From positions 1-28,783 of the forward strand of contig WAKA01000185.1 in assembly GCA_015523565.1 (NCBI GenBank): a stretch of 28,783 nt of DNA. The letters are read 5' to 3'. The notes beneath the pieces are model-generated. The model did not search any database. It worked only from the letters and a program-made list of their open reading frames with translations, and was not told where the DNA came from. The stretch is from Candidatus Heimdallarchaeota archaeon. Its GTDB lineage: Archaea > Asgardarchaeota > Heimdallarchaeia > Heimdallarchaeales > Kariarchaeaceae. Within the stretch, counting starts at the first letter, position 1; every line of letters starts with the position of its first letter. A program made the translations under genes and the position numbers. Shown here in pieces: positions 4,657 to 23,278 of the stretch.

Positions 4657-5004
4657 TCACAAGGCAACATATTCTTCAGGAATTAATCCTTTTTCGTATA
4701 GGAATTTTGCTTGGTTTGCAGAATATCTGTGTTCAAGAACACCTTTTTCCTCAGGATGCAATCCAAATTCAGGAATTACAAGAACCACATCACCTGTTCG
4801 AGACCACATTCTTTTTCTGTATTTTCCAGGAATGCGAACCTTCCTGACATGACCGTCCACACACCTCACCAACAACAAGTTTCCACCTAAAAGCTGGATA
4901 ATTTGTCCAAGAACCTCGCCTTTCTCTTTGTCAGGAAGGCGAACACGGATCACCTGACCATCTTCGCCCTGTTTAGTTTTTTGTTTTTTCTTCTTTTTTG
5001 CCAT
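4657..5004 (-). CDS. eif1a: Translation initiation factor aIF-1A (eIF-1A family)
   Basis: RVRLPD..GEVLG...LLGGN...VRCVDG..R..RIPGK.RKRMW...GDVVLV; basic N-terminal tail. Confidence 0.95.
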   Translation of the reverse strand: MAKKKKKQKTKQGEDGQVIRVRLPDKEKGEVLGQIIQLLGGNLLLVRCVDGHVRKVRIPGKYRKRMWSRTGDVVLVIPEFGLHPEEKGVLEHRYSANQAKFLYEKGLIPEEYVAL

Positions 5005-5010
5005 AGACCA

Positions 5011-5019
5011 ATCACTTCC
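5011..5019 (-). promoter_or_regulatory. Shine-Dalgarno-like site (GGAAGTGAT) upstream of aIF-1A
   Basis: One mismatch to the archaeal GGAGGTGAT consensus, 6 nt before the ATG. Confidence 0.5.
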
Positions 5020-5271
5020 AAATTAAAAGGATATTAATTGAAAATAAGCATTGCTGTTGAGTGCCAATTATCCCGATTTCAAACAATGTTAAGAAAAATA
5101 GGAATAAAAGCCAAAAAGACAACAAGAATGCATTTTTCAAACAAAAACCACAAAATAGGTGAAGATAGAGGGCAATCGATAGATTTACACTACAAACATT
5201 GATGGAAAAAGAAAATAAGGGATTACGTTATTGATAACTTAGTTGGACGAACATTGGAAGGTTAGTGCGAA

Positions 5272-5733
5272 ATGGTGCAAGCAAAACGAATGAAAAGATG
5301 GATTTTCGGAATGACAATGCTTTTGGTTTTGTTCCAAGGCAATATGTTGGTCTCTGCCAACTTTAGTGCGGATACAACAGTATTAGATGGATTTTACACA
5401 GACAGTGACTATGATGGATTTGCAGATGATGTTGTTGCATATGTAAGTGTAGATGTCTTATGGGGTTATTATGGGATGAGTATGGATGTGTATGTCGGGT
5501 TAACACTTCCAAGTGGAAATGAAATATGGTATGTGATAACTTTAACAGTTTATACCGACTATTTCATACTAAAATTGCAATTTTTGGATTCAGCGACGGA
5601 AAGTGGTTGGTATTCCGTTCATGCGGCAGCGTTTGCACCTCAAGACACATATGCCACAATGCACAGCTATACATTTGATCCACCAGGGGGAAGTCCAAAC
5701 AATCCTCCAAGTTTATTAGTTACAGTGATTTAA
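5272..5733 (+). CDS. Secreted beta-rich hypothetical protein with a DxDxDG motif
   Basis: Basic N-region plus hydrophobic core (signal peptide); DSDYDG motif; alternating beta-strand pattern; C-terminal DPPGGSP. Confidence 0.75.
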   Translation: MVQAKRMKRWIFGMTMLLVLFQGNMLVSANFSADTTVLDGFYTDSDYDGFADDVVAYVSVDVLWGYYGMSMDVYVGLTLPSGNEIWYVITLTVYTDYFILKLQFLDSATESGWYSVHAAAFAPQDTYATMHSYTFDPPGGSPNNPPSLLVTVI

Positions 5734-6948
5734 TCAAGTTGGTATTTGTTTTTGAATGCGGATTGAGAGATCAACGGGAAATAAACTACTGTTTTGTAAT
5801 GCCTGCAATGGTTCGGTTGCAATCCATTCAAGGGATGATTTCCATTGCCTGCCTTGGGGGTCGTAATTTCTGTGCCAAAGGTAGTATCTCATTGGATTTG
5901 GTCCAAGAACCATAACACGGATCTTACTGAACTTTTCAAAGAAGATTCGGTTGATTTCAGCGAAATCCTTTGGGGGAAGTTGAAGCCACAAGAATATTGA
6001 GTGATCCCCTTGATAGATGGAATTGGGGAAGGGAATGGCACCGATTTCCACAGCCTTCAACAATTGGCTTACTTCAAGGGTTTCATATTCAATAATGTAT
6101 AATGCCTGAATAAATAAGCCAAAATGTTCAGAATTAATGAAGAGTTCACTTCCCCGATAGATGCCCTCCTCTTTCAGTAATTTTAGATGGCGGGAGATCG
6201 TCTGTTGAGATCGATCAATCAATTTTCGTTCATCAGAATATTCAGCACCATATTTATTTAACATATCATCCAAAATTTCTTTTTGTGAACGTAATGTATT
6301 TCGAGTCAATTCACGTATGAGGATAATGTCATACATGTTAAGTTTGTGCAATACAGTGGAAGACAGTTCCTTTAAAGGAGTCTTGATGACAGGTTGATCA
6401 AAAACACCTCTAAGACGTTCAGGGTCAAAATTCCATCTTTTTGTTTCCAAGTTCCAATAAGAGATATTGCCTCTGCTGGAGTCAAGTTTTTGCACTTCAG
6501 GAAACACTTCATAAGATGAGATTATACGGTACTCATCCTTGAGCACATCAAATGCATGAATAAGATACCGCAAACTGTCCAAGTCAGAGGGGAGAACAAA
6601 CATTGCAAACATGCCATTGATATCTCCAAAAACCATATTGCGGTATATTGTATATGGATGGGCGTCAAAAAACAATTCCAATAATTTGATGTTTTCTTCC
6701 TTATTTTGTTCATTGGGGATTAACAGAAAAAAGTGCATTTCCAGGCCGATTTTTCTCAAATCGATATTTGCTTGGGCATAAGACACAATTTTTTCTTCCT
6801 TCAATTGACGAATATGGCGGGAAACAGTAGCGATAGAATAACTTTCGTCAGTTAGTTTCCTCATCTCTTCCAAAATTTCCTCTGTTGTTCGATCAGGGTT
6901 TTCGTACATTGCGATTAAAATCAACCAATCAACTGTTTTCAATTTCAT
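5734..6948 (-). CDS. Tandem-duplicated Lrp/AsnC-like winged-helix transcriptional regulator
   Basis: Two HTHs (SIATVSRHIRQLKEEKIV and SQQTISRHLKLLKEEGIY), each followed by an 'ID..K.GL'-type linker and an alpha/beta domain. ATG at 6948 (MKLKTVDWLIL) is preferred over the track start at 7008. Confidence 0.8.
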   Translation of the reverse strand: MKLKTVDWLILIAMYENPDRTTEEILEEMRKLTDESYSIATVSRHIRQLKEEKIVSYAQANIDLRKIGLEMHFFLLIPNEQNKEENIKLLELFFDAHPYTIYRNMVFGDINGMFAMFVLPSDLDSLRYLIHAFDVLKDEYRIISSYEVFPEVQKLDSSRGNISYWNLETKRWNFDPERLRGVFDQPVIKTPLKELSSTVLHKLNMYDIILIRELTRNTLRSQKEILDDMLNKYGAEYSDERKLIDRSQQTISRHLKLLKEEGIYRGSELFINSEHFGLFIQALYIIEYETLEVSQLLKAVEIGAIPFPNSIYQGDHSIFLWLQLPPKDFAEINRIFFEKFSKIRVMVLGPNPMRYYLWHRNYDPQGRQWKSSLEWIATEPLQALQNSSLFPVDLSIRIQKQIPT

Positions 6949-7041
6949 AATTATTGCAACCCATTGATTTTCGACTTTTTTAAATTTTTTCAAAAGTATA
7001 AACACCAATGGATAATTATTCCAAACAAAATTACAAAGAAA

Positions 7042-9351
7042 TTAATTCGCAACACCTTTTCCTTTATCAGTTAAAGCAAACTCCAGGTCGTCCTCACTTT
7101 TCAGATATCCTTTTTCAGTCAACTGTATTATGGTTCTGGAGATCAAAACAGGAGATGCAGAAGATGCCTTTTGTTTTAGCATGGAATGTTGAGTATAACC
7201 AAAGAGGTTCATCAATGCAAGTAATTCAAAGGCAGGATAAGACATCAACAGGTCTATATTGAATGCAACCCCGTGAGGGATCAATCCGTCATTTTTAAGG
7301 GATTCATAGATCTGTTTTAGACGTTCCTTATTTTCTTCTATTTTCTTTTGTTTTTCTTCTTCTTCTTTTTGTCTCCGTTCTTTTTCGATTTTTTCTTTTA
7401 CCTTTCTTTCATCTTCATTAAGGATATTGGAAATTTTTTGTGTAAGTTGCCAAGAATCATCCGATTTTTGTTCGATTACATTGTCGATTTCAAGTTGTGT
7501 TAATGTTCGGGTTATAAGAACAGGGGAGATTGAAGGGTTTTTTTCTTTTATCCCTTGTTGCCCAATCAAGGGGTGATCCTTTATGGTTTTAATTATTGCA
7601 TAACTGACGTTTTCTTCCAAAGGAATATCTGGCTTTATGTAACCCAATTTAGTCAATGCATTTCTGAACGCATGTTCTTCTTCATCTATTTTAGGAGCTT
7701 CATCCTCTGTAGGGGGAGGGGGGGATTCATCTTCAGGTTCAGGTTCTTCTTCAGTTTCAGGAGTCTTAAGTTCATTAAGAATTGCAAGAAGGGAAGGAGA
7801 CAGTTCATATAGATATGATTCTTCCTTTAGTAACCCATCCGCGACGAGATTGCTGAGAATTAACGAAATGGAGACAGGAGAAGCAATCATTTCGCTGATT
7901 TTTTCACCAGACAGGGGGGCATGTTCTGCCAACAGTTTAAGAACCAAGAATTCACCACTGTCAGCTGGGAAATTGAAATTCATGGTGGACAAGGCTTCTT
8001 TCAATAAATCCTCAATGGTTACAGAAGGAGGTTCAACTTCGGGGGTTTCCACTTGTGAAGAAGTGGCTTCCGAGGTTACTTCGTCCGTTTCGGTTTCTTC
8101 TTCAGATAGGATGGTTGTTGAAGAAGCAGAAATGTCAGGGGATTCTTCAGGAGATTCCATTGATTTTTCTTCTGCCTCAGTTATGGCATCAGCAGAGGAT
8201 TCACCAATATGGGGTGGTTCCTCGTCAGCAGTGGGTTTATCAGAGGAGGGGAGTGACATTTCTTGTTCATTTTTGTCTGTAGATTGAGCTTCAAGGGCTT
8301 CTGCTATTTGGGAAACGTCATCAGGGGAAATTGTAATTTTCCGCAATGAAACAGACAGTTCTTCTCCAAGTTGCCAAGAATATGAGGATTCATCTTGGAC
8401 AATTAGGCCATCTGCAGCCAAGTTGCTTAAAATCATGGAAATAGGGACATCATGAGATAATTTTTCCAAGATTTGATCTGTTGAGACTGGTTGCTCATTC
8501 ATGATTACCTTCAAAATATTGAAAGAATCATCGACAAGTATTTGACTTATTTCAAGGGTTGAAAATGAAGGGTGTGTCTGAATGACTTTTACGAGCTTGG
8601 CAAGTTCAGTCAAATCTGCCAAATCTGTTAGGGGAGAGGGAGTTTCATCTTCTGAAGATATCAAGACATTTTCTTTTGAGGTAGTACCCACACTGAATAA
8701 ATTGACGGACTTTTCAAGTTCCTCCAAAAGATCGGAGGTTATTCTCCATTTGTAATTTGAGGTCTGTTCTATCAATCCGTCTGCCTGAAGGTTGGACAAG
8801 ACAAGGGAGAGGGATTCACGGTTGACAATAACTTGTTCCAGCATTTCAGGGCTCATTTCTCCATTTTTCCAAAGCTTATAGACAACTTCAATCTCAGGGA
8901 TATTCAATAGGTTTCCGCCACTCCTATCAATAGAGATTCCCTTGTTCAGAAGAAGATCACATAATTTGTTCAACTCTTTTTTTCGAAGTTCTTGGGATGC
9001 ATCATCAATTGATTCAGGAACGCGACCCACATTACCAGCAATTTTTGTGACAGTTTCGTTGATTTTGGCTAAAAGATCGGGATGGATTTCCCATTTATAA
9101 TTGTTTGATGACTGAATAATGAGCCCATCACTTTGAAGATTGGAAAGGAGTAGGGAAATGGAAGGAAGATCGGGATAAGCCCTTTCGAGATTTTCAGTTG
9201 CAACAGATTCGTGCATATACACATAGGAAACAATCAGGTATTCTGGAATTTCACGATAACGTCCAGATTGAATGTCCATTTTTGAAAGATAGTTTAGTTT
9301 TTGGAGTTCTGAAACGAGAACCTCTCGTTCCAAGTCATTGAGTTCCTTCAT
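7042..9351 (-). CDS. Large protein with six winged-helix repeats and acidic low-complexity linkers
   Basis: Repeated motif (I/L)S(L/M)(I/L/V)LSNLx(A/S)DGL occurs four times, and LI(T/S)RT(L/I)xQL twice; each is followed by a wing hairpin with W/Y/F. Confidence 0.8.
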   Translation of the reverse strand: MKELNDLEREVLVSELQKLNYLSKMDIQSGRYREIPEYLIVSYVYMHESVATENLERAYPDLPSISLLLSNLQSDGLIIQSSNNYKWEIHPDLLAKINETVTKIAGNVGRVPESIDDASQELRKKELNKLCDLLLNKGISIDRSGGNLLNIPEIEVVYKLWKNGEMSPEMLEQVIVNRESLSLVLSNLQADGLIEQTSNYKWRITSDLLEELEKSVNLFSVGTTSKENVLISSEDETPSPLTDLADLTELAKLVKVIQTHPSFSTLEISQILVDDSFNILKVIMNEQPVSTDQILEKLSHDVPISMILSNLAADGLIVQDESSYSWQLGEELSVSLRKITISPDDVSQIAEALEAQSTDKNEQEMSLPSSDKPTADEEPPHIGESSADAITEAEEKSMESPEESPDISASSTTILSEEETETDEVTSEATSSQVETPEVEPPSVTIEDLLKEALSTMNFNFPADSGEFLVLKLLAEHAPLSGEKISEMIASPVSISLILSNLVADGLLKEESYLYELSPSLLAILNELKTPETEEEPEPEDESPPPPTEDEAPKIDEEEHAFRNALTKLGYIKPDIPLEENVSYAIIKTIKDHPLIGQQGIKEKNPSISPVLITRTLTQLEIDNVIEQKSDDSWQLTQKISNILNEDERKVKEKIEKERRQKEEEEKQKKIEENKERLKQIYESLKNDGLIPHGVAFNIDLLMSYPAFELLALMNLFGYTQHSMLKQKASSASPVLISRTIIQLTEKGYLKSEDDLEFALTDKGKGVAN

Positions 9352-9422: not shown

Positions 9423-11390
9423 TCAATCATGTTCAAAGTAATTTTCCAAATTTTGGATGTCAATTGATTTATGAGCCCTTTGTCGGCTGAACTTTTTGAT
9501 GAGCCAACCAATTAAGATGATAGCCATTAAAACAGGGACAGAAATGATTATGAAAATCAAGTAATCAAGAGGGGAAATGAAGGGAGAGGAGTCGGCAAGG
9601 ATGAGGAATCCATATATGTTCAATCCAAGATCACCGCTGGCAGTTATTATTTTGTTTTTCCCAGATATGATTGTGGAGTCATAAGTTTGTTCAATAGGAT
9701 AATACGAGACATTGACAAGAGATGGAACCTTGATTTCCATGAGATAACTGACGGAAACCAGCAAAATGCTTTCATTGGACAATGGGAACAAATTACGACC
9801 GACGTCAATTCCAGAGGTTTTCATGACTTCATTGGATTTTTGGAGGGGGACATCAGTTGTGACAAGTAAATATGGGAATCCTGTCAAGAGAATCATATCA
9901 TTGGTCAAGGTGAGATCATTGACTTCAGAAAATTCAAATCCAAGTTTTATTTCTGTAGCAGAAACAAGTTTTGTTTGTAGGATATTAATTTCACCGATAG
10001 ATGAAGTCGTGGCATAAAACAATTTTTTATCAGTAAGTAGAATTGCATCGACACCATTTATCTGATAAGTGCTTAAGAGTTGCGGAGAAACGGGAGTTGA
10101 AAAGTCAAGCAGGGAAATCCAGTCAGAGTTGGCCACTGCGATCCAATTTTTGAAAAGAGAAAGAGAAGATCCATTCAATGCAGGATTTGTATATACCAAC
10201 AAAATGTTTTGGAGATTTCGAATGTCAAAAACAAAAAGTCCCGTATCATTTACCGCAATTAAATAGGAACCAAGTATTACAATATCATTGATTTGGTATG
10301 GGAAAGGAAAACGGAAGACAGTCAAATCATCGATTGAGAAAAACACGATACTGTCATACTCAGAAACAGAGGCAACAACACCATTTTCGGATGAGGAAAC
10401 AAGTTGGAAATTATTGGAGGGGAAATCGAAAGAGGAAAACAAGCGGAGGGATTTTGAATCCTGTGGAAGAAATACCTCCAATCCAGAGACCCCATGGGCC
10501 ACTATGATTTTTCCATCGACAGTGGCAATGTCTTTGATTCTATCAATTCCCCACATCCCAGAAACGTTTTGGAAGACTGTAAAATCACGATCCAACAATA
10601 ACACATCAGAGGAAGTTATGGCGAATGTTTTGTTTGGCAGTGCAAAGATATATCGAGGCATGAATTCCATGAGTTTGACATAAGAGGCGGAGGAGTTATC
10701 GACAATGAACAATGATTTCCCAGAAAATGCATATAGGGTTTTGTCGGTAAAAAAGAATTTTGCCCCCAATTCAAATTGAGAAGTTGGATAAACATCATAG
10801 GTCAAGTCAGATGTGTTTATAATTACTAGGCCCAAATCACTTAGCAAGAAAACTTGAGAGTTTAAAGTGAAAGCATCATAAACAGACAAACTGCTGTTTT
10901 GGATCAACGGGGCAAATCGATCGTTTATGACAGAGAGTAGAGAGAATCCATTGCCATATGCCAAGACAAGGTTTTGATCGATGGCAAGAAGACCTCTGAA
11001 AGATGAAAGGAAAGAAATATTGATCCGATCAAGAATTTCAAAGGAAGTTACAGAGAGAAGGAGAATTTCCCTTTGTTCAAAATCATAAAGATATATGAAT
11101 TTGTCAGAAACTTCAATTGCTGAATAGTCGGAAAATTTTTCAAGGAAAACCGTTTGTAACAGGATGAGTTTATTATTGAGGAGTGAGAAAACAGCAAAAC
11201 CCTCTGCACCATTGGCTACAAAAATTTTGTTTTGGGAGATGGCCAGATCAGAAAGATCAGAGTTCCCCACGTCAATTGTTTGACGTCCCAACTTTTCAAT
11301 TTCGCTTTTTGATAATTGAGGAGGATATACTGAGGTAATTAGAATGAGAATGGAAAGGAAGAATACCTGAAATCGGAATCGAAATGTCAA
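9423..11390 (-). CDS. Cell-surface beta-propeller protein (LVIVD-repeat-like), signal peptide plus C-terminal TM anchor
   Basis: N-terminal hydrophobic segment; repeats IFVANGAEGFAVF, IIVAHGVSGLEVF, GLFVFDIRNLQN, LLDFSTPVSPQLL and ITASGDLGLNIY; TM near residues 610-632 then a short basic tail. TTG start. Confidence 0.75.
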   Translation of the reverse strand: MTFRFRFQVFFLSILILITSVYPPQLSKSEIEKLGRQTIDVGNSDLSDLAISQNKIFVANGAEGFAVFSLLNNKLILLQTVFLEKFSDYSAIEVSDKFIYLYDFEQREILLLSVTSFEILDRINISFLSSFRGLLAIDQNLVLAYGNGFSLLSVINDRFAPLIQNSSLSVYDAFTLNSQVFLLSDLGLVIINTSDLTYDVYPTSQFELGAKFFFTDKTLYAFSGKSLFIVDNSSASYVKLMEFMPRYIFALPNKTFAITSSDVLLLDRDFTVFQNVSGMWGIDRIKDIATVDGKIIVAHGVSGLEVFLPQDSKSLRLFSSFDFPSNNFQLVSSSENGVVASVSEYDSIVFFSIDDLTVFRFPFPYQINDIVILGSYLIAVNDTGLFVFDIRNLQNILLVYTNPALNGSSLSLFKNWIAVANSDWISLLDFSTPVSPQLLSTYQINGVDAILLTDKKLFYATTSSIGEINILQTKLVSATEIKLGFEFSEVNDLTLTNDMILLTGFPYLLVTTDVPLQKSNEVMKTSGIDVGRNLFPLSNESILLVSVSYLMEIKVPSLVNVSYYPIEQTYDSTIISGKNKIITASGDLGLNIYGFLILADSSPFISPLDYLIFIIISVPVLMAIILIGWLIKKFSRQRAHKSIDIQNLENYFEHD

Positions 11391-11511
11391 ACGATTGCAA
11401 ATGGTATTTAGACAAAAATAAGAGTTTGGACAGAAATAATAGAAAGAATTGAATCAGGATAAAAAACCTTAACATAGAAATCCATCTTTATAGATAAGAT
11501 TGAACCTACAA

Positions 11512-12843
11512 ATGACAGCCTCATCCAATACATTGCATAATGAAATCCCTGCAGATCTAGAGGCAGTTATTGATGCATTGGTACAACATCCAGTCTATCC
11601 AAAGGTATTGTTTGTGTCAAAAGGGAAAATTGTTGCGGGGATTGGGGAGATTTTGGGACATGAACCAACATCCACGAAAGATGCAGGAAATTTTTTTGGA
11701 GGAATGTTATCAAAGGTTCATTCGATAACCAAAGAGGAATTTGATACAAAAGGAAGTGCAAATGGACAAGCAGGAGTTTCACCTAAAATGTTCATGATAT
11801 TTCCTTTTGATTTCAAAGTGGGAAGAGAGAGCATATGGAAAAATACCCCTTCATCAAAGGTCTTTGTTCCCTCGCTTATGATTGAATTTGAAGATGGACT
11901 GTGCCAATTAGCCACATTCAAAGGGGAAGGGCAAAAAGAAGCGTTTGAGATGTTTATTGAACTTTTAAGAAAGGAAAAGCAACAGAATAGTAAAAAAGGA
12001 GACATCATATTTGAAGATGTCCCATCATATCACTATTGGAAAAAATCAGTCCAAGAAGTTCTTGACGAGATTGAACAGCAACAAATGAAGAAAATCGTGC
12101 TGAGCAGGACAAGACATGCGACATTAACAGGGAAAATTGACTTGACAAGGACAATCCTGCAATTGACAAAAAATAATGAAAACAGCACCACATTTCTTAT
12201 GGCAACTGATGAAACTAGTGTGTTTTTTGGATCCACACCCGAATTGCTGGGTAGAAAAAGGGGGAACTTATTCAAGACAATGGCGTTGGCAGGGACAGTA
12301 AGGTCTGCCAAAAAGGCGGAAGAGGAGGAAGATTTGAAAAAAGAGCTCTTTGAATCTGAGAAATTGAGAGAAGAACATGAAATCGTAGTTACTACCATTC
12401 AAGATGAGCTTCAAGAGTTATGTGAAAAAATTGAGATTGGGAACATGGAAGTAGTATCATTGAAAAATGTGATGCATTTGCATACACCCATCAAAGGCGT
12501 ATTGAAAGATAAGATAAAATGGTGGCATGTATTTGAGAGAATTCATCCCACCCCTGCTGTTGGTGGCTTGCCAAAAAACGTGGCAATCAAGCAAATCAGA
12601 AAAATAGAGCATTGGGGAAGGGGGTGGTATTCTGGCGTAATTGGTTGGGCAGACATGAAAGGAAATGCGGACTTATTTGTCAGTTTAAGATGTGGGCTTC
12701 TAAAAGGAAAAGATTTATGGATATTTGCAGGGGCAGGGATTGTGGAAGGATCGGATGCATTGGCAGAGTGGCAAGAAACAGCACTGAAGTTTCAATCAAT
12801 AGAGAACTCGTTGTTTTTGGAGAATGAATATGAGACCCTATAA
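11512..12843 (+). CDS. menF: Isochorismate synthase (MenF-like)
   Basis: KIVLSR, FFGSTPELL, MALAGT, EEHEIV, HLHTPI, HPTPAVGGLP, RGWYSG, FAGAGIVEGSD..AEWQET..K; overlaps menD. Start is ATG 11512 or TTG 11500. Confidence 0.92.
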   Translation: MTASSNTLHNEIPADLEAVIDALVQHPVYPKVLFVSKGKIVAGIGEILGHEPTSTKDAGNFFGGMLSKVHSITKEEFDTKGSANGQAGVSPKMFMIFPFDFKVGRESIWKNTPSSKVFVPSLMIEFEDGLCQLATFKGEGQKEAFEMFIELLRKEKQQNSKKGDIIFEDVPSYHYWKKSVQEVLDEIEQQQMKKIVLSRTRHATLTGKIDLTRTILQLTKNNENSTTFLMATDETSVFFGSTPELLGRKRGNLFKTMALAGTVRSAKKAEEEEDLKKELFESEKLREEHEIVVTTIQDELQELCEKIEIGNMEVVSLKNVMHLHTPIKGVLKDKIKWWHVFERIHPTPAVGGLPKNVAIKQIRKIEHWGRGWYSGVIGWADMKGNADLFVSLRCGLLKGKDLWIFAGAGIVEGSDALAEWQETALKFQSIENSLFLENEYETL

Positions 12844-14506
12844 TTTTACAATTGCAAGCCATTTTGTCAAAACATTAATTGATTTGGGGGTTAGGGAAGC
12901 ATATATTTCCCCAGGATCAAGATCCACGCCCTTAACCTTGGCATTTGCAAGATTCAAAGAGAAAATCTTGACAAGAGTTGTATTTGATGAACGCAGTTCT
13001 GCGTTTCACGCATTGGGAGCGGCAATATATTCAAATGTGCCTGTTGCATTAGTCTGTACGTCAGGGTCCGCCTTAGCAAACTATATGCCAGCAGTTGTGG
13101 AGGCATTTCAATCGGAAATCCCATTGTTGATGCTCACCGCGGACAGACCACCAGATTTACAACTGACAGGATCAAACCAGACAATGAACCAACAAAATTT
13201 TTTCGGACATTTTTCAAAAGCCTATGTTGAAATGCCAGTGGGAGATTCCATGCAATGGAAACAAAATAACATGAAGAAATTTGTAAGGATACGGGCGGCA
13301 CTGGCATTCAGTTTGGCAAATCAAGACCCAAAGGGACCCGTACAAGTCAATTTCCAGTTCAGGAAACCGCTTGAACCGCATGAGGAGGAGAGATCTGCAT
13401 TATTGGAAAGGGAAAGCAGTCCCAAGATAATTTCAGGGGAACCTTCTTTGACAAATGAACAGGTAAGGGAACTGGCAGGAATACTGAACCAAGTGAAACG
13501 ACCATTATTTGTATTGGGTCCAAATGCATGGCGAATAGTTGATTTGACCATTGTGGAAAAGTTTGCAAGGAATTTAGGGATTCCCATATTTGCAGATATC
13601 TTGTCAGGATATACGCCCGTTACAGCCCATGTTACATTTTTACAAAGCAGAAAAGTCATGGAGGAAATCAGGCCAGATTTGGTGATACATCTTGGAAAGG
13701 TTCCGATTTCCAAGGAGTTGAATGATTTGATTGCCACATCACAATTCAAGATTCAAATTTCAAAATCATTGAGACTCCATGATGACCGTCACAAAACAGA
13801 CATGCTATTTGTCGCAAAGCCAAATGAGATTTTGGAGAAAACGGAAGAGCAGGTCAATCCATATGGACAGGATTGGACTGAAAAAATCGAGAAACTGGAC
13901 AGGCAGACAAAAAGTCTATTGAAACAAAAGATGAAAACAAGCAAATGTGAAGGGACTGCAATAGGGAATTTAGTTAATGAGACAAAGGAAGGAGAATTGA
14001 TATTTTTAGGAAACAGCCTTTCAGTAAGGCATGCAGAACAGTTTGGGGTTTTCTCAAGGGCGAAGTTCTTTGGGAATAGGGGAGTCAGTGGGATTGATGG
14101 AAACCTGTCAACAGCGCATGGAATTGCATTGGGATCAGGGAGGAAAGTGATTGCCATCATTGGGGATTTGGCAATGCTTCATGATATGAATGCCCTTGCC
14201 TCTAGACAAAGGGGGAAGATAGTACCAATAGTTATCAACAATCAAGGCGGAAACATATTTACACGATTACCGATTTCAGAAGAGAGGGAATTCAAGGAAT
14301 ATTTTTACACCCCGCATACATTTCGGTTCAAGAGCATTGCAGATTTTTATGGGATGGACTACATTCAAACAAATGTTGAAATGCGGCAGGATATTGCTCA
14401 GGAAAACACATTTATTGAAATAATTACAGAAGGACAAAAAGATGAGAGGAAAAGAGATGAAATTACAAAGCAAGTTATTTCATCGCTTGAGCAATCATTT
14501 TTCTGA
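12824..14506 (+). CDS. menD: SEPHCHC synthase (ThDP-dependent), menaquinone pathway
   Basis: SPGSRSTPL, DERSSAF, CTSGSA, TADRPP, GNRGVSGIDG and GDLAMLHDMN...INNQGG motifs. Confidence 0.96.
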   Translation: MNMRPYNFTIASHFVKTLIDLGVREAYISPGSRSTPLTLAFARFKEKILTRVVFDERSSAFHALGAAIYSNVPVALVCTSGSALANYMPAVVEAFQSEIPLLMLTADRPPDLQLTGSNQTMNQQNFFGHFSKAYVEMPVGDSMQWKQNNMKKFVRIRAALAFSLANQDPKGPVQVNFQFRKPLEPHEEERSALLERESSPKIISGEPSLTNEQVRELAGILNQVKRPLFVLGPNAWRIVDLTIVEKFARNLGIPIFADILSGYTPVTAHVTFLQSRKVMEEIRPDLVIHLGKVPISKELNDLIATSQFKIQISKSLRLHDDRHKTDMLFVAKPNEILEKTEEQVNPYGQDWTEKIEKLDRQTKSLLKQKMKTSKCEGTAIGNLVNETKEGELIFLGNSLSVRHAEQFGVFSRAKFFGNRGVSGIDGNLSTAHGIALGSGRKVIAIIGDLAMLHDMNALASRQRGKIVPIVINNQGGNIFTRLPISEEREFKEYFYTPHTFRFKSIADFYGMDYIQTNVEMRQDIAQENTFIEIITEGQKDERKRDEITKQVISSLEQSFF

Positions 14507-16326: not shown

Positions 16327-17271
16327 ATGTCAGACATCAAAGAAAGGCTAAATGAAAAATATCAGAGGGGAGAAATCAGTGAAGAAGAATACAGGCGGTT
16401 GTTGAAAGATCTGGAAAAATTGGGGATGTTGCATGAGGAACAAAATGAAAAAGCGACAGGAGTCTATGAAAAGATAACAGTTAATGGAGCAAGAACCATT
16501 GAAGGAGGGGTTAACAAAAATGGAACACATGTCAATGGGAAATTTAGATCTACAAAGGCATTCACAACAGAACAATTGTATGTAAATGGGAAAGCAGAGT
16601 TTGAAGGGAAATTGGAAGTCAAAAAAAATACAAAAATCAATGGGAAAATAGAGTTGAAAGATGACGGAATTTTTATTGGACCCATCACAATTACAGGGAA
16701 GATTGAAAGTGAGGGAAATCTTGTATTTTCGTCTGGTGGGAAGGTTTCTGGAAAAGTCGAATGCAATGGAGAGATAACAACAGCGGAAGAACTGAAGATT
16801 TCTGGAAAGCTCGAGGCAGAGACATTAGCGTCTACAGGAACAATTGTTACATCTGGACCGATCCACATAAAAAAGGGAATTATTGCGGAGCAATTTATTT
16901 CAATGGAAGGGGGAGGTTCAGCAGAGTACATCAAAGCAAAAAAGGTGGTTATAGGGGAAGAATACAAATATTCAACTGAAAAGAAGAAAAGTCCAGAACA
17001 GGTAGAAAACCTGAAAGATTTAGCAGAGTACCTTACATTTGTCATTTCAAGAGCATTTTCGAGGCACAAGACCCATGAACCGAAAGAATTTGAAATCAGG
17101 TCACACATTGAAGGAGAGGAAATCCAGCTATCACATGTCCATGTCATGGGAGACATTGTGGGGGATCGCATCATATTGGATGAGAACACAAAGGTTGACG
17201 GAGTGGTAAAATATAGGGAAAGTGCAATAATTCCAGAGAACATGGAAGTTGAGACTGTTCAAATATCCTGA
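16327..17271 (+). CDS. Bactofilin-like (polymer-forming cytoskeletal) beta-helix protein with an N-terminal SHOCT-like domain
   Basis: N-terminal LNEKYQRGEISEEEYRRLL; about 17-aa repeats (ITVNG, THVNG, LYVNG, TKING, ITITG, GKVSG, LKISG); C-terminal IEGEEIQL...V.GDIVG..I.L...TKVDG.V.Y. Confidence 0.78.
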   Translation: MSDIKERLNEKYQRGEISEEEYRRLLKDLEKLGMLHEEQNEKATGVYEKITVNGARTIEGGVNKNGTHVNGKFRSTKAFTTEQLYVNGKAEFEGKLEVKKNTKINGKIELKDDGIFIGPITITGKIESEGNLVFSSGGKVSGKVECNGEITTAEELKISGKLEAETLASTGTIVTSGPIHIKKGIIAEQFISMEGGGSAEYIKAKKVVIGEEYKYSTEKKKSPEQVENLKDLAEYLTFVISRAFSRHKTHEPKEFEIRSHIEGEEIQLSHVHVMGDIVGDRIILDENTKVDGVVKYRESAIIPENMEVETVQIS

Positions 17272-18875
17272 TTGATTGGTTTTGATGGAAAGACACCTAA
17301 AAATTTCTGGATAAGAGTATCTCTTGGCACAGGGTCTTTTTCAGGGTAATCCTTTGTGTAGTGAGAGCCTCTGCTCTCTTTTCGAAATAGGGCAGATTCG
17401 ACAATAAGTTCAGCCACTGTCAATAGGTTTCTTAATTCCAAAAGGGGTTGAGTGACCTTATAGTTCCAATAATATTCCTCAATCTCATCATGAATAAGTT
17501 TTAGCCGTTTTTTTGCTCGAAGCAACCTTTTGGATGTTCGTTCGACGCCGACATAGTTCCACATTGCCCTTCTGATTTCATCCCAAGCATGAGTGACAAT
17601 TACCCCCTCATCACTTTCAACGGCATCCCCAGTTTGCCAAGGGGGAAATGAAAGCTCCCCGATACCCTTTTCAAGAAGATCAAAGGCGTATTCCGCAGCC
17701 TTTTCACCCATTACCGCACCTTCAAGCAAAGAGTTACTTGCAAGGCGATTCGCACCATGAAGACCCGTATTTGTGACTTCACCAACGGCCAAAAGATACG
17801 GGATATCTGTTTTTCCGTTTAGGTCTGCGACAATGCCGCCAACGGTATAATGGGCAGCAGGGACAACAGGGATCGGCGTTTTTGTCATGTCAATGCCATA
17901 TTTCATTAATGTTGAATACACCAAGGGGAAACGTTTTTTGATGAAATCTGGATTTTTGAAGGTAATGTCAAGCAAGACATGGTCATCGCCAGACCGTTTC
18001 ATCTCCTTGTCAATTGCAAGTGCAATTTTATCTCTTGGTGCCAATTCAGCCATTTCATGATATCTAGGCATGAAACGTGTTCCAGAAATTGTCTTGAGGA
18101 TGGCGCCTTCACCTCGTAAAGCCTCAGTGATAAGAAAAGATTTTGCGTAGGGATGGTACAGGCAAGTAGGGTGAAATTGGACAAATTCCATATTTCGAAT
18201 GGTTGCACCTGCCCTATAGGCCATGGATATACCATCACCAGAAGCGATATCAGGATTGCTTGTGTATAAGAATGCCTTTCCAGCACCACCAGTTGCAAGA
18301 ACAGTGATTTTTGATTCGAAATTATAGACTTCATTATTTTCAGTATTAAGAACATAAGCTCCAGCAACCTTTCCATCAACAATTGCCAAATCGATAGCCG
18401 TATGGTTTTCAAAAATGTTCACACCATCAAGTTTTTTGATGGTGGCAACTAGAGCCTCTTCAACAGCCTTTCCAGTATAATCACGAACATGTGCAATTCT
18501 TCGATGGTGATGACCCCCTTCCCGTCCCAATTCCAAGTTGCCGTTTTCCCGATCAAATTCAACACCCAGTTCAATCAATTTTTTTATTATGTGAGGGCCA
18601 TATTGAACAACCTCTCGGACAACCTGCAGTTTACATAAACCGTCACCGGCATCCAAAGTATCTTGAATATGTCCTTCAAAATTATCAGAAGGGTCTAAAA
18701 CAGCGGCGATACCACCTTGAGCATAACGTGTGTTGCTTTCATGAATTTGACGTTTGGTAATGATGTTGATTGAATAATCAGAAAGTTCACGCAACCTATA
18801 TGTAAAAATAAGTCCAGAAATTCCAGACCCAATAACTAATACATCAGATCTTATAACTTGGCTAGAGGTAGCCAT
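17259..18875 (-). CDS. nadB: L-aspartate oxidase
   Basis: GSGISG FAD motif, YAQGGIAA, REGGH...RIAH, QFHPT, ITEALRGEG, ELAPRD, PAAHYTVGG, GLHGANRLASNSLLE and ESRGSHY. Confidence 0.96.
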   Translation of the reverse strand: MATSSQVIRSDVLVIGSGISGLIFTYRLRELSDYSINIITKRQIHESNTRYAQGGIAAVLDPSDNFEGHIQDTLDAGDGLCKLQVVREVVQYGPHIIKKLIELGVEFDRENGNLELGREGGHHHRRIAHVRDYTGKAVEEALVATIKKLDGVNIFENHTAIDLAIVDGKVAGAYVLNTENNEVYNFESKITVLATGGAGKAFLYTSNPDIASGDGISMAYRAGATIRNMEFVQFHPTCLYHPYAKSFLITEALRGEGAILKTISGTRFMPRYHEMAELAPRDKIALAIDKEMKRSGDDHVLLDITFKNPDFIKKRFPLVYSTLMKYGIDMTKTPIPVVPAAHYTVGGIVADLNGKTDIPYLLAVGEVTNTGLHGANRLASNSLLEGAVMGEKAAEYAFDLLEKGIGELSFPPWQTGDAVESDEGVIVTHAWDEIRRAMWNYVGVERTSKRLLRAKKRLKLIHDEIEEYYWNYKVTQPLLELRNLLTVAELIVESALFRKESRGSHYTKDYPEKDPVPRDTLIQKFLGVFPSKPINQDI

Positions 18876-19499: not shown

Positions 19500-20351
19500 A
19501 TGTATTTTGGCGCACACTTTTCAATTCAGGGAGGATATCATATTGCTGCAGAAAAGGCAAATGAGATGGGATGCACAACCCTACAGATTTTCACCCGTTC
19601 ATCAAGGATATGGAAAGCCAAATCAATGAACCCAGATGCGGCAAGCAAGTTCAAGGAGGCAATTCAAAAGTCAGGACTAAAAAAACCAGTTGTTCATTTG
19701 CCCTATTTGCCGAATTTTGCAACGGATGACCCGACAATATATGAGAAGTCAAACCAATCCTTGAAAGAAGAAATTCAGAGATGTGGGTTGCTTGGTATCC
19801 AATTATTGGTTGTCCATGTGGGCTCCCATAAAGGGAAGGGAGTTGCGACAGGAATAAAAAACGTGGTCAAGCATTTGGACAGTGTAAACGATGTTGCTGC
19901 GGAAAACAAGGTGTATATTTGTCTAGAAACTTCGGCAGGAACAAAGAACAGTACTGGGAGCAAGTTTGAGGAGATAGGGAGCATCATTCAAAAAACAAGT
20001 GATGACAAAATGATTGGGGTCTGCTTTGATACTGCACACATCTTTGCTGCGGGATATGACATAAGAACACCAGAAAGTGTTGAAAGGACAATAACAGAGT
20101 TTGAAAATGAGATAGGGTTGAAAAGGCTGAAAGTTGTGCATTGCAATGACAGCAAGTTTGAATTGGGATCTGGAAAGGATAGGCATGAACATATAGGATT
20201 GGGGAATATTGGAGAAAAGGGGTTCAAGGCGTTTTTCAGCAATAGCCGAATTAAAAAACTAGAAGTGCCAGTCATTTTAGAAACGCCAATTGATGAGAAG
20301 GGGACACATGAAACTGATTTTAAAAAATTGAAGGAAATAGTTGGATTCTGA
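19500..20351 (+). CDS. nfo: Endonuclease IV (AP endonuclease 2)
   Basis: GAHFSI.GG, QIFT, HLPYL.N, VVHVGS, LETSAG, CFDTAH, HCNDSK...DRHEHIG and ILETP. Confidence 0.96.
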   Translation: MYFGAHFSIQGGYHIAAEKANEMGCTTLQIFTRSSRIWKAKSMNPDAASKFKEAIQKSGLKKPVVHLPYLPNFATDDPTIYEKSNQSLKEEIQRCGLLGIQLLVVHVGSHKGKGVATGIKNVVKHLDSVNDVAAENKVYICLETSAGTKNSTGSKFEEIGSIIQKTSDDKMIGVCFDTAHIFAAGYDIRTPESVERTITEFENEIGLKRLKVVHCNDSKFELGSGKDRHEHIGLGNIGEKGFKAFFSNSRIKKLEVPVILETPIDEKGTHETDFKKLKEIVGF

Positions 20352-20979
20352 AAGAAGAAGATTTAATCAAGCGAAACAAAATGGAATTGATAGAATGATC
20401 GATGAAAGGGAAGTGCTCAGAGCGGCATTAAAGGACTTAGAATTGGCTGACAAATATGAGGAAATCCTCAGCAGGGAAAAAACGTTGATCAGCCCTTTTT
20501 TTGAGGTCAATGGGTTGGATTTGAGTGGGTTGGAGATTACAAACCTGCCAGAAAACTTTTTTGAAAAGTTCCCCCACCTTTTCTTTTTAAGTCTCAAAAA
20601 CAATAAAATTTCAGAACTCAAAGGCAATCTGTTGCACAAGAACAGAAAGTTGAGAGAGTTGGATCTTTCAAGGAACCAATTGGAGGAACTTCCAGAGAGC
20701 CTAATAAGCAAAGCACATCATTTGCAAATCCTAGACCTTTCCTTTAATAGAATAAAAGAACTCCCAGATGACATTTTCAAGAAATCAAAAAACTTGAAGA
20801 GGCTAAACCTGTCGAATAACATGATGGAAAAATTACCACGGAGCTTTTATGATTTGAAGATACTGTCATTTGTAGATTTGACGGGAAACAGGTTTCCTGA
20901 AGAGATAAACAAGGTCGTAATTGATGAGGAAAGTGTTAAGAGGTTTGTAATTAAGGTCAAAAAGGTGTTAGGTGAATAG
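20341..20979 (+). CDS. Leucine-rich repeat protein
   Basis: About 6 LxxLxLxxNxLxxLP repeats of roughly 24 aa; TTG start overlaps the nfo stop. Confidence 0.88.
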   Translation: MDSERRRFNQAKQNGIDRMIDEREVLRAALKDLELADKYEEILSREKTLISPFFEVNGLDLSGLEITNLPENFFEKFPHLFFLSLKNNKISELKGNLLHKNRKLRELDLSRNQLEELPESLISKAHHLQILDLSFNRIKELPDDIFKKSKNLKRLNLSNNMMEKLPRSFYDLKILSFVDLTGNRFPEEINKVVIDEESVKRFVIKVKKVLGE

Positions 20980-20981
20980 AA

Positions 20982-21998
20982 GTGTCGTTGAAATTTTCAG
21001 AGATGAAATATTCAAATGCTTTGGAGAAACTGGAAGCGATATTGTTTTCACTGTCACCGATCCTGCCCATTATTTTGTGGAGATTCGGAAATTCCCAGAT
21101 TAACTTCATTCCAATTCTCAAGCCAATACTCATTATAGCGGCAATTGTGCTTTTTGGGAGGGACATCTTCAAGAAAAAAGGGGAAACACATTATGTAGGT
21201 ATTTCAGTTGCAATCCATTTAGTGTCGGTAATTGTCATGGTCTTGTATCTGTACGTGAACGCCAAATTATTCAATCTAAGCCTTGTCACAATGCTTCTTT
21301 CATACAATATGTTCGCACCAGAGAAAAATTATGAGGACATGATTCAATATGTCAAGACACATCAAAAGATGAAAGGGTTTCAATCAGCTCTTGTTTTGGA
21401 AGATTTGGGATTTGAGAACCAAATCATATCACCATTGGATATTGCGATCACGAAAAAGAAATTCATAAAATTTTTTGCAGGCGACTTCTATTCAACCAAG
21501 CAAAGTGCAATTTTATCTTTAAACCTGTCCTTCATAATTTTCACCTATCTTAGCATCTTCATACCAACTACATCCGTTTGGGCAAACATGGTGATTTTTG
21601 CATTCGGATTTTCAGGAGCATTTGTATTTGGATTGGGCTTACGAATATTCATTGCGGCAGTATATTACCAAAAAGATTTGCTAAAGGAAATAAAGGGATA
21701 TCTAAGAATTGTAGACAAGCCACATAGAGTGATTCCAATAGTTGTGAAGGGGAGTTATGCAACACTTGCATTGGGTGCATTGTGGATAATAGTTGCATTG
21801 ATTTTACGACCCGTACCAGCCATACCCACAAAATTTGGGATAGAGGTGCTGGGATGGGGGATCATATTATTTTTCCCAATAGTTTTGGCGTTAACATATC
21901 CAATCCAGCCAATATGGCGAAAATTGGTTTGGGCAAATTTAAAAGAGGGGACAGGAAAACAAAAGAAGGGGAAAAAGAAAAATGTGCGTCGAAAATAG
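20982..21998 (+). CDS. Hypothetical multi-pass membrane protein with a lysine-rich C-terminal tail
   Basis: About 8 hydrophobic segments; tail GKQKKGKKKNVRRK; begins 2 nt after the LRR gene stop. Confidence 0.7.
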   Translation: MSLKFSEMKYSNALEKLEAILFSLSPILPIILWRFGNSQINFIPILKPILIIAAIVLFGRDIFKKKGETHYVGISVAIHLVSVIVMVLYLYVNAKLFNLSLVTMLLSYNMFAPEKNYEDMIQYVKTHQKMKGFQSALVLEDLGFENQIISPLDIAITKKKFIKFFAGDFYSTKQSAILSLNLSFIIFTYLSIFIPTTSVWANMVIFAFGFSGAFVFGLGLRIFIAAVYYQKDLLKEIKGYLRIVDKPHRVIPIVVKGSYATLALGALWIIVALILRPVPAIPTKFGIEVLGWGIILFFPIVLALTYPIQPIWRKLVWANLKEGTGKQKKGKKKNVRRK

Positions 21999-22008
21999 GC
22001 TTTTATAA
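21991..22008 (+). promoter_or_regulatory. BRE/TATA promoter of the UbiD-family gene
   Basis: GAAAA...TTTTATAA ending 22 nt before ATG 22031, the spacing expected for a leaderless archaeal transcript. Confidence 0.6.
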
Positions 22009-22030
22009 CGATAGAGAGATATTGGGAACA

Positions 22031-23278
22031 ATGAGAAATTTTCTAGAACAAATTCCACATCATGTCATCAAGGAAGAGGTTTCATGGAAAGGGAGTGCAA
22101 CAGAGCTAATAATAAGGCATAATGAAGAACCAATCGTTTTTGAGAATATAGAGGGTTATGAGACCAGAATGGTCGCAGGAATTGTTTCTTCAAGAGAGTT
22201 ACTTGCAAAATCGATCGGGGTTACACCAAGAGACCTTTCAGACACCGTTGGACGAGCATTTGACAAGCCGTTGCCGCTGGAGGAGACAAATGATGCACCA
22301 TTCCTTGCGACCCATATCAAAAATCCAGACATCGGGAAATACATCCCCATCCCAGAGTTTTTTGGAGGCAAGAGGTATCTAACGGCATCCATTGTGCTTG
22401 CAAAAGACCCAATCACTGGAAGAAGAAATGCATCCATCCATAGAATGATGTATAGGGAGAAAAATGAATTTGCCATCAGACCAGTTGCCCAAAGGCATCT
22501 GCATAGTTTCTATACAACAGCATTAGAGCAAGGAGCAGACCACTTGGACATTGTGATTATTTTGGGGGTTCATCCTGCATTCGAGTTGGGAGCGGCAACA
22601 TCATACCCCGGATTGGATGAATTGGCGTTTGCATCACGTTTAATGGGAGGGGCAAAAGAATACAAAGTCAATGGAATTGGAGTGCCAGTCAATACGGAAA
22701 TAGTCATGGTTGCAAAAATGCTTAGGGATCAAGTTGAGGAGGGGCCGTTTGTCGACTTGACAGGCACACAGGACCATGTAAGGATGCAACCCTTGGTCAA
22801 GATCACAGATCTTTACATGAGAGAACGCCCTCTCTTTAGAACTATCCTTCCTGGCATGAAAGAGCACAAGATATTAATGGGCATACCTCAAGAGCCAAGG
22901 ATGAAAAAGCTGATACAAAACACAGTGCCAACAGTAACAAATGTTGTTATGACAGAAGGAGGAGGCTCTTGGCTTCATGCAGTAGTCCAAGTGAAAAAAC
23001 GAACCGATGGAGATGGAAAAAATGCCATTATTTCGGCATTGGCCGCGCATCCTTCATTGAAAAGAGTAGTAGTTGTTGATGAGGACATTGATCCTACAGA
23101 TCCCGTTGATGTGGAATGGGCCATTGCCACGAGGTTCCAAGCAGATAAAGACATGGTTTTAGTCCCAGGGGCAAAAGGGAGCAGTTTAGACCCATCAGCC
23201 ACAAATTCCATCACCTGCAAATGGGGGATAGATGCAACAAAGCCCTTGGGTGCAAAGGGATTTGACCGTGTGATTTAG
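22031..23278 (+). CDS. UbiD-family prFMN-dependent decarboxylase (candidate anhydromevalonate-phosphate decarboxylase)
   Basis: RNASIHR, EEGPFVDLTG, VVVVDEDID, VEWAIATRFQ, GSSLDPS and GIDATKP. Start moved to ATG 22031 because of the upstream TATA box and to remove the overlap with the preceding gene. Confidence 0.9.
   Translation: MRNFLEQIPHHVIKEEVSWKGSATELIIRHNEEPIVFENIEGYETRMVAGIVSSRELLAKSIGVTPRDLSDTVGRAFDKPLPLEETNDAPFLATHIKNPDIGKYIPIPEFFGGKRYLTASIVLAKDPITGRRNASIHRMMYREKNEFAIRPVAQRHLHSFYTTALEQGADHLDIVIILGVHPAFELGAATSYPGLDELAFASRLMGGAKEYKVNGIGVPVNTEIVMVAKMLRDQVEEGPFVDLTGTQDHVRMQPLVKITDLYMRERPLFRTILPGMKEHKILMGIPQEPRMKKLIQNTVPTVTNVVMTEGGGSWLHAVVQVKKRTDGDGKNAIISALAAHPSLKRVVVVDEDIDPTDPVDVEWAIATRFQADKDMVLVPGAKGSSLDPSATNSITCKWGIDATKPLGAKGFDRVI

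Follow-up and report, generated by a model that had tools for sequence, protein, structure and literature searches.

What does a protein assembled from six winged-helix (wH) domains do when those domains are depleted of the basic residues carried by the winged helix-turn-helix (wHTH) domains of the same genome? The question is raised by a gene of a Candidatus Heimdallarchaeota archaeon (Archaea; Asgardarchaeota; Heimdallarchaeia; Heimdallarchaeales; Kariarchaeaceae), located on contig WAKA01000185.1 of NCBI GenBank assembly GCA_015523565.1. Positions 1 to 28,783 of the contig were analyzed, and this whole stretch of 28,783 nucleotides is referred to below as the window. The gene lies on the minus strand at positions 7042 to 9351, stop codon included, and the open reading frame (ORF) list and translation give a product of 769 amino acids (aa) with an ATG start, here called P0001. 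The N terminus is kept in the alignment of orthologues, and the protein is predicted from its sequence to be soluble, with neither a transmembrane segment nor a signal peptide, and to have an isoelectric point (pI) of 4.43. The gene is present in a single copy in the host genome, an assembly of 3.57 Mb in 233 contigs that is about 90% complete.

P0001 is a real 769-aa protein of six wH modules, and the modules fall clearly into two classes. Units 1 to 4, or class A, carry the motif LSNLx(A/S)DGL, beginning at residues 69, 185, 308, and 499, and place S-N-L-x-A-D on helix 3. Units 5 and 6, or class B, carry SPVLI(T/S)RT, beginning at residues 609 and 733, and share S-P-V-x-I-x-R. A lead helix with an "L...GY" motif stands before each of the six modules. 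Profile hidden Markov models (HMMs) built from 90 class A and 37 class B units of the family were used in a six-frame search of the genome, and each of the six domains in P0001 matched the profile of its own class with an E value between 1e-17 and 1e-27. Starting from the N terminus, and all on the minus strand, unit 1 (LSNLQSDGL; positions 9043 to 9342, aa 4 to 103) matched with an E value of 9.6e-25, unit 2 (LSNLQADGL; 8704 to 8994, aa 120 to 216) with 4.1e-25, and unit 3 (LSNLAADGL; 8317 to 8610, aa 248 to 345) with 1.4e-22. Unit 4 (LSNLVADGL; 7744 to 8022, aa 444 to 536) gave an E value of 9e-18 for aa 458 to 536 and has a modeled lead helix at aa 446 to 456. In the class B part of the protein, unit 5 (SPVLITRT; 7417 to 7686, aa 556 to 645) has its HMM domain at aa 556 to 654 with an E value of 7.3e-27, and unit 6 (SPVLISRT; 7048 to 7320, aa 678 to 768) has its domain at aa 671 to 768 with an E value of 8.4e-25. 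Six wH units with a lead helix each, and their division into two motif classes, had been claimed in an earlier reading of the DNA letters (the original prediction); the HMM domains, the translation, and the structural model described below bear out both claims, and the six helix-3 positions given at that time all map onto the motifs above.

The repeat is not a generic regulator domain in disguise. Besides P0001, the six-frame search gave one clear match in the genome and two further ORFs at E values of about 0.002 to 0.003. The genome's generic regulators, represented by 30 MarR and 23 TrmB-type matches, showed no comparable E value against the unit profiles, and the P0001 repeat is therefore specific, far beyond chance. 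The two classes are homologous to each other across the lead helix and the wH (hhalign probability of 99.5%, E value of 1.9e-22). Across the 90 class A units, which come from many proteins, the helix-3 motif never varies in its S, N, L, and D; the class B units of the family always have an Arg on helix 3, which in P0001 is Arg615 in unit 5 and Arg739 in unit 6, and a Lys preceding it.

A model of P0001 was made with AlphaFold2 from the family alignment. The mean predicted local distance difference test score (pLDDT) was 74.6 and the predicted template modeling score (pTM) was 0.28, and the arrangement of the domains relative to each other is not confident. Within all six units, the model has the same layout of a lead helix, a loop, three helices, a beta-hairpin wing, and a C-terminal helix, with pLDDT values of about 80 to 92 for the helices and wing of unit 1. 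The segments at aa 106 to 116, 217 to 242, 363 to 443, and 531 to 555 are disordered. Unit 2 modeled alone (pTM of 0.61) matched the MarR-family protein TcaR with a Z score of 8.8 and a root mean square deviation (rmsd) of 3.0 Å over 92 residues, and the whole model matched the same protein with a Z score of 9.7 and an rmsd of 3.2 Å over 101 residues. Unit 5 was closest to the DNA-binding domain of Fur (Z score of 9.6, 2.0 Å over 71 residues), and unit 6 to that of PerR (Z score of 8.8, 2.0 Å over 77 residues). Further matches to the unit 2 and whole models included MecI, TFE/TFIIE, the N-terminal domain of MotA, RPC62, ScpB, and ribosomal protein eS19. These fold matches, with Z scores of 7 to 10, lie within about 2 Z units of one another, and they therefore support a generic winged helix and nothing more specific. 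Models and fold matches nonetheless give a wH in every unit. Sequence-profile searches of the PDB with both unit classes reached E values of 0.02 to 0.06 at best, to a MarR protein, and returned no close solved relative. For aa 547 to 769, a two-copy complex prediction scored 0.00, which is no answer and speaks neither for nor against dimerization.

The modules are tied together by two kinds of connector. Most units are joined by acidic disordered linkers, of which two had been described correctly in the original prediction. The first, rich in E, S, T, and P, lies between units 3 and 4 (positions 8023 to 8265, minus strand, aa 363 to 443), with a pLDDT of about 30 and a net charge of -21 over aa 365 to 443. 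It varies in length and sequence among orthologues, and in two of them (P0011 and P0014) extra wH units stand in its place. The second is rich in Pro and precedes unit 5 (7687 to 7743, minus strand, aa 537 to 555), with a pLDDT of about 35 and a net charge of -11 over aa 531 to 556. The connector between units 5 and 6 is a charged helix of fixed length (7321 to 7416, minus strand, aa 646 to 677), modeled with pLDDT values of 78 to 89 as part of one continuous helix spanning aa 638 to 687. It had been called a K/E coiled coil, and here the original prediction needs correction. Residues 645 to 677 are 79% charged (Glu, Lys, Arg, and Asp) and 9% hydrophobic, they contain 16 opposite-charge i/i+4 pairs, and they show no heptad register, the best one having hydrophobic residues at 6 of 15 a/d positions, mostly at the ends. 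An ER/K helix is recognized by a charged fraction above 70%, by Glu-Lys/Arg pairs at i/i+4, and by the lack of a hydrophobic heptad seam; the segment has all three marks and looks like a rigid ER/K single alpha-helix (SAH) spacer more than a coiled coil. Such spacers occur in myosin VI, myosin X, and caldesmon. The run of about 32 residues in P0001 resembles them in its charge-rich composition, its dense i/i+4 pairs, and its single modeled helix; it is a predicted SAH, and a coiled coil is possible. The length of the spacer was 31 to 33 residues in all nine orthologues examined.

The modules also differ from DNA-binding regulators in their charge. As a control, 24 MarR-type wH domains from the same genome were compared with the P0001 units over the equivalent 59 residues. 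The net charge of the units ranged from -1 to -7 over this region, versus a mean of +3.2 ± 2.7 and a range of -1 to +9 for the controls. Over helix 3 and the wing, the units carried 0 to 3 Lys and Arg residues, and the controls 4 to 9 with a mean of 6.1; the corresponding net charges were -4 to 0 for the six units and +2.5 on average for the controls. All six units, those of the SPVLISRT class included, lie under the Lys+Arg range of the controls, and five of the six lie under their net-charge range. Compared with the wHTH domains of the same genome, the P0001 modules are depleted of basic residues, and the earlier claim of non-basic recognition helices held against this control. The proteome as a whole is not acidic: the median ORF pI is 6.3, and P0001 belongs to the 3.5% of ORFs with a pI below 4.5. 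All orthologues have pI values of 4.4 to 4.9.

The absence from these modules of the Lys and Arg complement of the genome's DNA-binding wHTH domains makes a protein-binding scaffold the most likely reading. Taking sequence and model together, we consider the chance about even that P0001 is a lineage-specific multivalent scaffold that binds proteins or peptides. On this reading, the ligand would be a protein rather than a nucleic acid, and its binding would be multivalent. Every wH would offer a partner, itself repeated or oligomeric, the same conserved face of polar and hydrophobic residues on helix 3 and the wing, and the linkers and the ER/K helix would set the reach and spacing of the modules. 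The reuse of the module in sister proteins with TPR/SNAP-like repeats and with coiled coils, described below, favors a scaffold. Several observations weigh on the other side. The nearest solved relatives of the fold are mostly DNA-binding regulators, and an acidic overall charge by itself may be compatible with nucleic-acid binding through a local patch. The invariant Arg on helix 3 of class B and the Lys before it are possible phosphate contacts. Rather than a ligand face, the invariant SNLxAD may be a structural feature that caps a helix and makes the turn into the wing. Synteny is confined to the closest relatives (loci L001 and L027), is lost in L002, L003, and L022 to L026, and offers no clue to a partner; no partner of P0001 was identified in this analysis. 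The original proposal of a scaffold in place of a transcription factor gains indirect support from the low Lys and Arg content, the position in the acidic tail of the proteome, and the TPR/SNAP-like and coiled-coil fusions.

The charge comparison also bears directly on the alternative that P0001 is an ordinary, if long, MarR-type transcription factor whose six DNA-binding domains sit on several operator half-sites. Pfam finds MarR (29.1 bits, cutoff of 24.6) and HTH_Crp_2 (39.1 bits, cutoff of 27) in the whole protein, both from partial stretches, and stretches of each lie in unit 2; one source labels an orthologue "predicted transcriptional regulator"; and MarR-family structures are among the top fold matches. 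The likeness to the MarR family (PF01047; TcaR, 3kp2/4ejt; TM0710, 2a61) extends in each P0001 unit to the N-terminal helix, the three-helix wHTH, the two-strand wing, and the helix that follows, with Z scores of 8.8 to 9.7 and rmsd values of 3.0 to 3.3 Å over 92 to 101 residues. However, MarR proteins are homodimers of single-wH chains of about 140 to 170 aa, whereas P0001 has six units in one chain of 769 aa, and a single helix follows each unit where MarR proteins have a C-terminal dimerization helix pair. The P0001 wing is shorter and lacks the Arg conserved in MarR, few of the Lys and Arg residues that make the basic DNA contacts of MarR are left in helix 3 and the wing, and the unit profiles reach solved MarR proteins at E values no better than 0.02. 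With every orthologue strongly acidic and all six units below the Lys+Arg range of the genome's wHTH domains, we regard a conventional MarR-type factor as the least probable of the explanations weighed here.

The same acidity suggests another role, in which the wH surfaces and the linkers rich in Glu, Asp, Ser, and Thr shield basic clients such as histones, ribosomal proteins, or nucleic-acid-binding proteins. P0001 would then be an acidic chaperone or a decoy, comparable to the eukaryotic histone chaperones, whose acidic tails bind clients of positive charge and shield them. A pI far below the proteome median, the strongly negative linkers, and the acidity kept in all orthologues agree with such a role. 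The argument is purely one of composition, however, and the linkers are poorly conserved in length and sequence, with extra wH units replacing one of them in some orthologues. Shielding by charge would also leave unexplained the invariant SNLxAD and the position-specific conservation of six units, and we judge it very unlikely.

Class B invites a further explanation, which corresponds to the chromatin tether with two wH classes raised in the original prediction. Units 5 and 6, by way of their conserved Lys and Arg, would fix the protein to DNA or RNA, the four class A modules would recruit proteins, and the ER/K helix would hold the two anchoring units a fixed distance apart. Units 5 and 6 are the least acidic of the six, with net charges of -4 and -1 and pI values of 5.1 and 6.1. 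The invariant K, S-P-V, and R of class B lie on or before helix 3, and the best matches of the two units are to the DNA-binding domains of Fur, PerR, MecI, and TrmBL2 and to Z-alpha domains (Z scores of 8.4 to 9.6, rmsd values of 1.2 to 3.6 Å). The constant spacer length fits as well, as does the occurrence of a class B module at the end of a coiled-coil protein whose tandem neighbor has a TrmB/MarR-type wH. Against this, helix 3 and the wing of units 5 and 6 contain two to three Lys and Arg residues and have a net charge of -2 to -3, below all 24 control domains, and the wing Arg motif of MarR-type domains is missing from them. The gene has no associated DNA repeats or operators, and its genomic context is not conserved. 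On balance, we consider a tether of this kind the strongest rival of the scaffold, possible but unlikely.

The scaffold reading finds its models in other proteins with several wH domains, although P0001 is related to none of them end to end. The architecture, which the original prediction did not recognize, matches no characterized family over its length in Pfam, NCBIfam, PADLOC, or the PDB. The sole NCBIfam match is a sub-threshold one to Sta1, PADLOC returned none, and PHROGs gave generic regulator helix-turn-helix (HTH) matches only, so there was no substantive match to a defense or phage family. In RNA polymerase III (Pol III), the wH domains of Rpc82/RPC62, which has four extended ones, and of Rpc34, which has them in tandem, are protein-interaction modules. 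These subunits likewise have several wH in one chain, and they gave the top Foldseek matches to the whole P0001 model (7z1o_O, E value of 1.8e-3; 2xub). The Foldseek alignments to Rpc82/RPC62 had E values of 1.8e-3 to 4e-2, TM scores of 0.09 to 0.14, and rmsd values of 19 to 33 Å, on a model with a pTM of 0.28, and VIA-align gave Z scores of 9.0 to 9.7 at 13 to 18 Å. With such low TM scores and high rmsd values, the similarity is probably one of single domains only. In contrast to the universal Pol III subunits, P0001 is limited to one archaeal family.

In ESCRT-II, the tandem wH domains of EAP30/Vps22-36 and Vps25 bind proteins rather than DNA. P0001 shares the tandem wH, and its host is an Asgard archaeon that possesses ESCRT-II; its EAP30 and Vps25 homologs are separate, however, and encoded on contigs C32 and C207. 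These ESCRT-II genes had no match above the cutoff in any of 14 control prokaryote genomes. P0001 had no match at E values up to 10 to the Pfam families of ESCRT-II (PF04157 and PF05871), Rpc34/Rpc82, TFIIE, or ScpB. Alignment by hhalign of the unit profile with the genome's own Vps25-like, EAP30-like, and MarR-type proteins gave a probability below 1% in each case, a comparison in which single-sequence targets cannot discriminate. The earlier comparison with ESCRT-II and the Pol III subunits C34/C82 is an analogy only.

ScpB and the other "kite" proteins are acidic tandem-wH partners of kleisins that bind protein and not DNA. P0001 resembles them as an acidic wH array, with a weak profile match (4i98_B, E value of 0.24) that extends over the lead helix and a fold match to 2z99_A (Z score of 7.4). 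The host genome, at 90% completeness, had no match to ScpB (PF04079), ScpA (PF02616), or the SMC hinge (PF06470). Across the 47 genomes of the order, none had ScpB over the cutoff, the one weak match having an E value of 4.5e-4, and the SMC hinge was matched in 7, all in another family. The lineage of the host appears, from these profile searches, to lack a canonical SMC-ScpAB condensin, and with no ScpA match throughout the order there is no kleisin for P0001 to bind. We therefore rejected P0001 as a substitute for ScpB: ScpA, ScpB, and for the most part the SMC hinge are missing order-wide, and P0001 is confined to one family.

A further parallel is the C-terminal domain of the Lhr helicase, in which five wH modules are reported to nucleate a tetramer (PMC8053096). 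As in P0001, an array of five or six wH domains would serve protein-protein assembly rather than DNA recognition. The Lhr array is bacterial, compactly packed, and attached to a helicase core, whereas the P0001 modules are free-standing, separated by disordered linkers, and joined to no enzyme. No sequence relationship between P0001 and the Lhr array was detected. With wH scaffold arrays already known from ESCRT-II, Rpc82, and Lhr, P0001 is an uncharacterized, lineage-specific wH subfamily and architecture and not a new principle.

The distribution of the family is narrow. Among 5.8 billion proteins, a word-indexed search recovered 11 full-length relatives with 26 to 99% identity, and a profile search of 1.84 billion representative proteins gave 72 matches at E values up to 1e-3, 36 of them reaching 1e-30. 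The named homologs come from "Candidatus Heimdallarchaeota" metagenome-assembled genomes. Within 400 genomes of the phylum, matches occurred in 10 of the 11 other genomes of the host's own GTDB family and in none of 388 genomes from 32 other families. By these searches, the P0001 family does not extend beyond a single family of Heimdall-group Asgard archaea, and no eukaryotic relatives were detectable by HMMER. A literature search for Asgard or Heimdall multi-winged-helix proteins found no description of the family. Orthologues align from end to end at 26 to 54% identity, with SNL and D invariant in units 1 to 4 and P-V and R invariant in units 5 and 6. Each unit is 36 to 46% identical to the unit at the same position in orthologues and 21 to 36% identical to the other units; the array of six is therefore older than the split of the genera, with every position maintained since. 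Of the comparisons proposed with the original prediction, the taxonomic one gave this clear restriction to a single GTDB family, and that of gene neighborhoods gave no conservation beyond the genus.

Inside that archaeal family, the module is found in other arrangements. Three proteins (P0011, P0014, and P0018) have six class A units and one class B unit, and proteins of about 400 aa carry three units. Sister proteins begin with TPR/SNAP-like repeats and carry one or two units after a disordered region, and others, of about 246 aa, combine a coiled coil of about 170 residues with one C-terminal class B unit. The other clear match in the host genome (P0083, contig C35) is of this coiled-coil type, with a class B module. 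Two adjoining minus-strand genes on C35 (L017:4268-4996 and 4996-5739) each encode a protein of about 245 aa with a long coiled coil and a C-terminal wH; one is P0083, with the class B module of the six-wH protein, and its partner matches TrmB and MarR. The two proteins may form a heterodimeric pair. Small leucine-rich-repeat proteins (LRR_8, LRR_4) are encoded both in the window, at 20341 to 20979 on the plus strand, and beside the C35 pair, at L017:6761-7531.

These arrangements permit a broader but decidedly improbable reading, in which the SNLxAD / SPVxIxR wH is an undescribed, lineage-specific adaptor module that docks all of its architectures onto one common cellular target. At least four architectures would be served in this way, namely arrays of six to seven or more units, three-unit proteins, TPR/SNAP-like fusions, and coiled-coil fusions, and the target could be a filament, a chromatin component, or a membrane-remodeling complex, for example. 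If this were true, the six-unit protein would be a multivalent hub at the center of a new scaffold network of Asgard archaea, and its ER/K helix would serve as a molecular ruler.

The gene neighborhood adds little to these readings. In the closest relatives, the six-wH gene lies between an upstream gene for a membrane-anchored beta-propeller-like protein and a downstream double-HTH gene, near menaquinone (men) genes. In the window, the double-HTH gene (positions 5734 to 7008, minus strand, 424 aa) follows the six-wH gene on the same strand, beginning 33 bp downstream. In its product, an ArsR/Lrp-like HTH and the domain of about 150 aa behind it occur twice through internal duplication; the gene is a conserved neighbor only in L001 and L027. 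The upstream gene (9423 to 11390, minus strand) encodes a 655-aa protein with an N-terminal signal or anchor, a repetitive beta-rich sequence, and a C-terminal transmembrane helix (LIFIIISVPVLMAIILIGW), which had no match in Pfam or NCBIfam. Across the orthologous loci compared, no conserved operon partner of the six-wH gene was found, and gene context therefore gives no function. Inference of function from the neighborhood was dropped, as the recurrent genes (bactofilin-like, Orc1/Cdc6, RadA, and NAD-kinase-like) look like residual synteny and not like an operon.

One of these recurrent genes in the window encodes a protein with SHOCT and bactofilin-like regions (positions 16327 to 17271, plus strand; Pfam Bactofilin, E value of 2.4e-9). 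A bactofilin-like gene lies 0.1 to 7 kb from the six-wH gene in five loci, representing two genera and one metagenomic contig (L001). These loci include L025:3528-4475, where it directly adjoins the six-wH gene, L026:12654-13616, L001, and L027; the proximity is probably residual synteny. In some orthologous loci, but not in the window, the six-wH gene is convergent to an Orc1/Cdc6 gene or less than 3 kb from RadA (L022:7051-8298, plus strand; L025:5805-7040; L026:13731-14825). Elsewhere in the window, plus-strand genes at 11500 to 14506 and 21782 to 23278 form a quinone-related set of a chorismate-binding, isochorismate synthase-like (MenF-like) gene, a MenD-like thiamine diphosphate enzyme, and a UbiD-family decarboxylase. 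A flavoprotein of the succinate dehydrogenase/fumarate reductase type is encoded at 17259 to 18875, and eIF-1A at 4657 to 5004. The eIF-1A gene marks the window as archaeal and, together with the ESCRT-II genes of the genome and the Heimdallarchaeota homologs, agrees with a Heimdall-group Asgard host.

Asgard archaea attract study because they bear on how the protein-interaction machinery of eukaryotes arose, and ESCRT-II, Pol III, and other complexes of eukaryote type use wH arrays as protein scaffolds. In this context, P0001 offers a clean, independently evolved case of a wHTH turned from DNA binding into a repeated non-basic module. Its wider significance hinges on the ligand, the family being confined to one taxonomic family, and the protein could point to an unrecognized cellular assembly in one Heimdall lineage.

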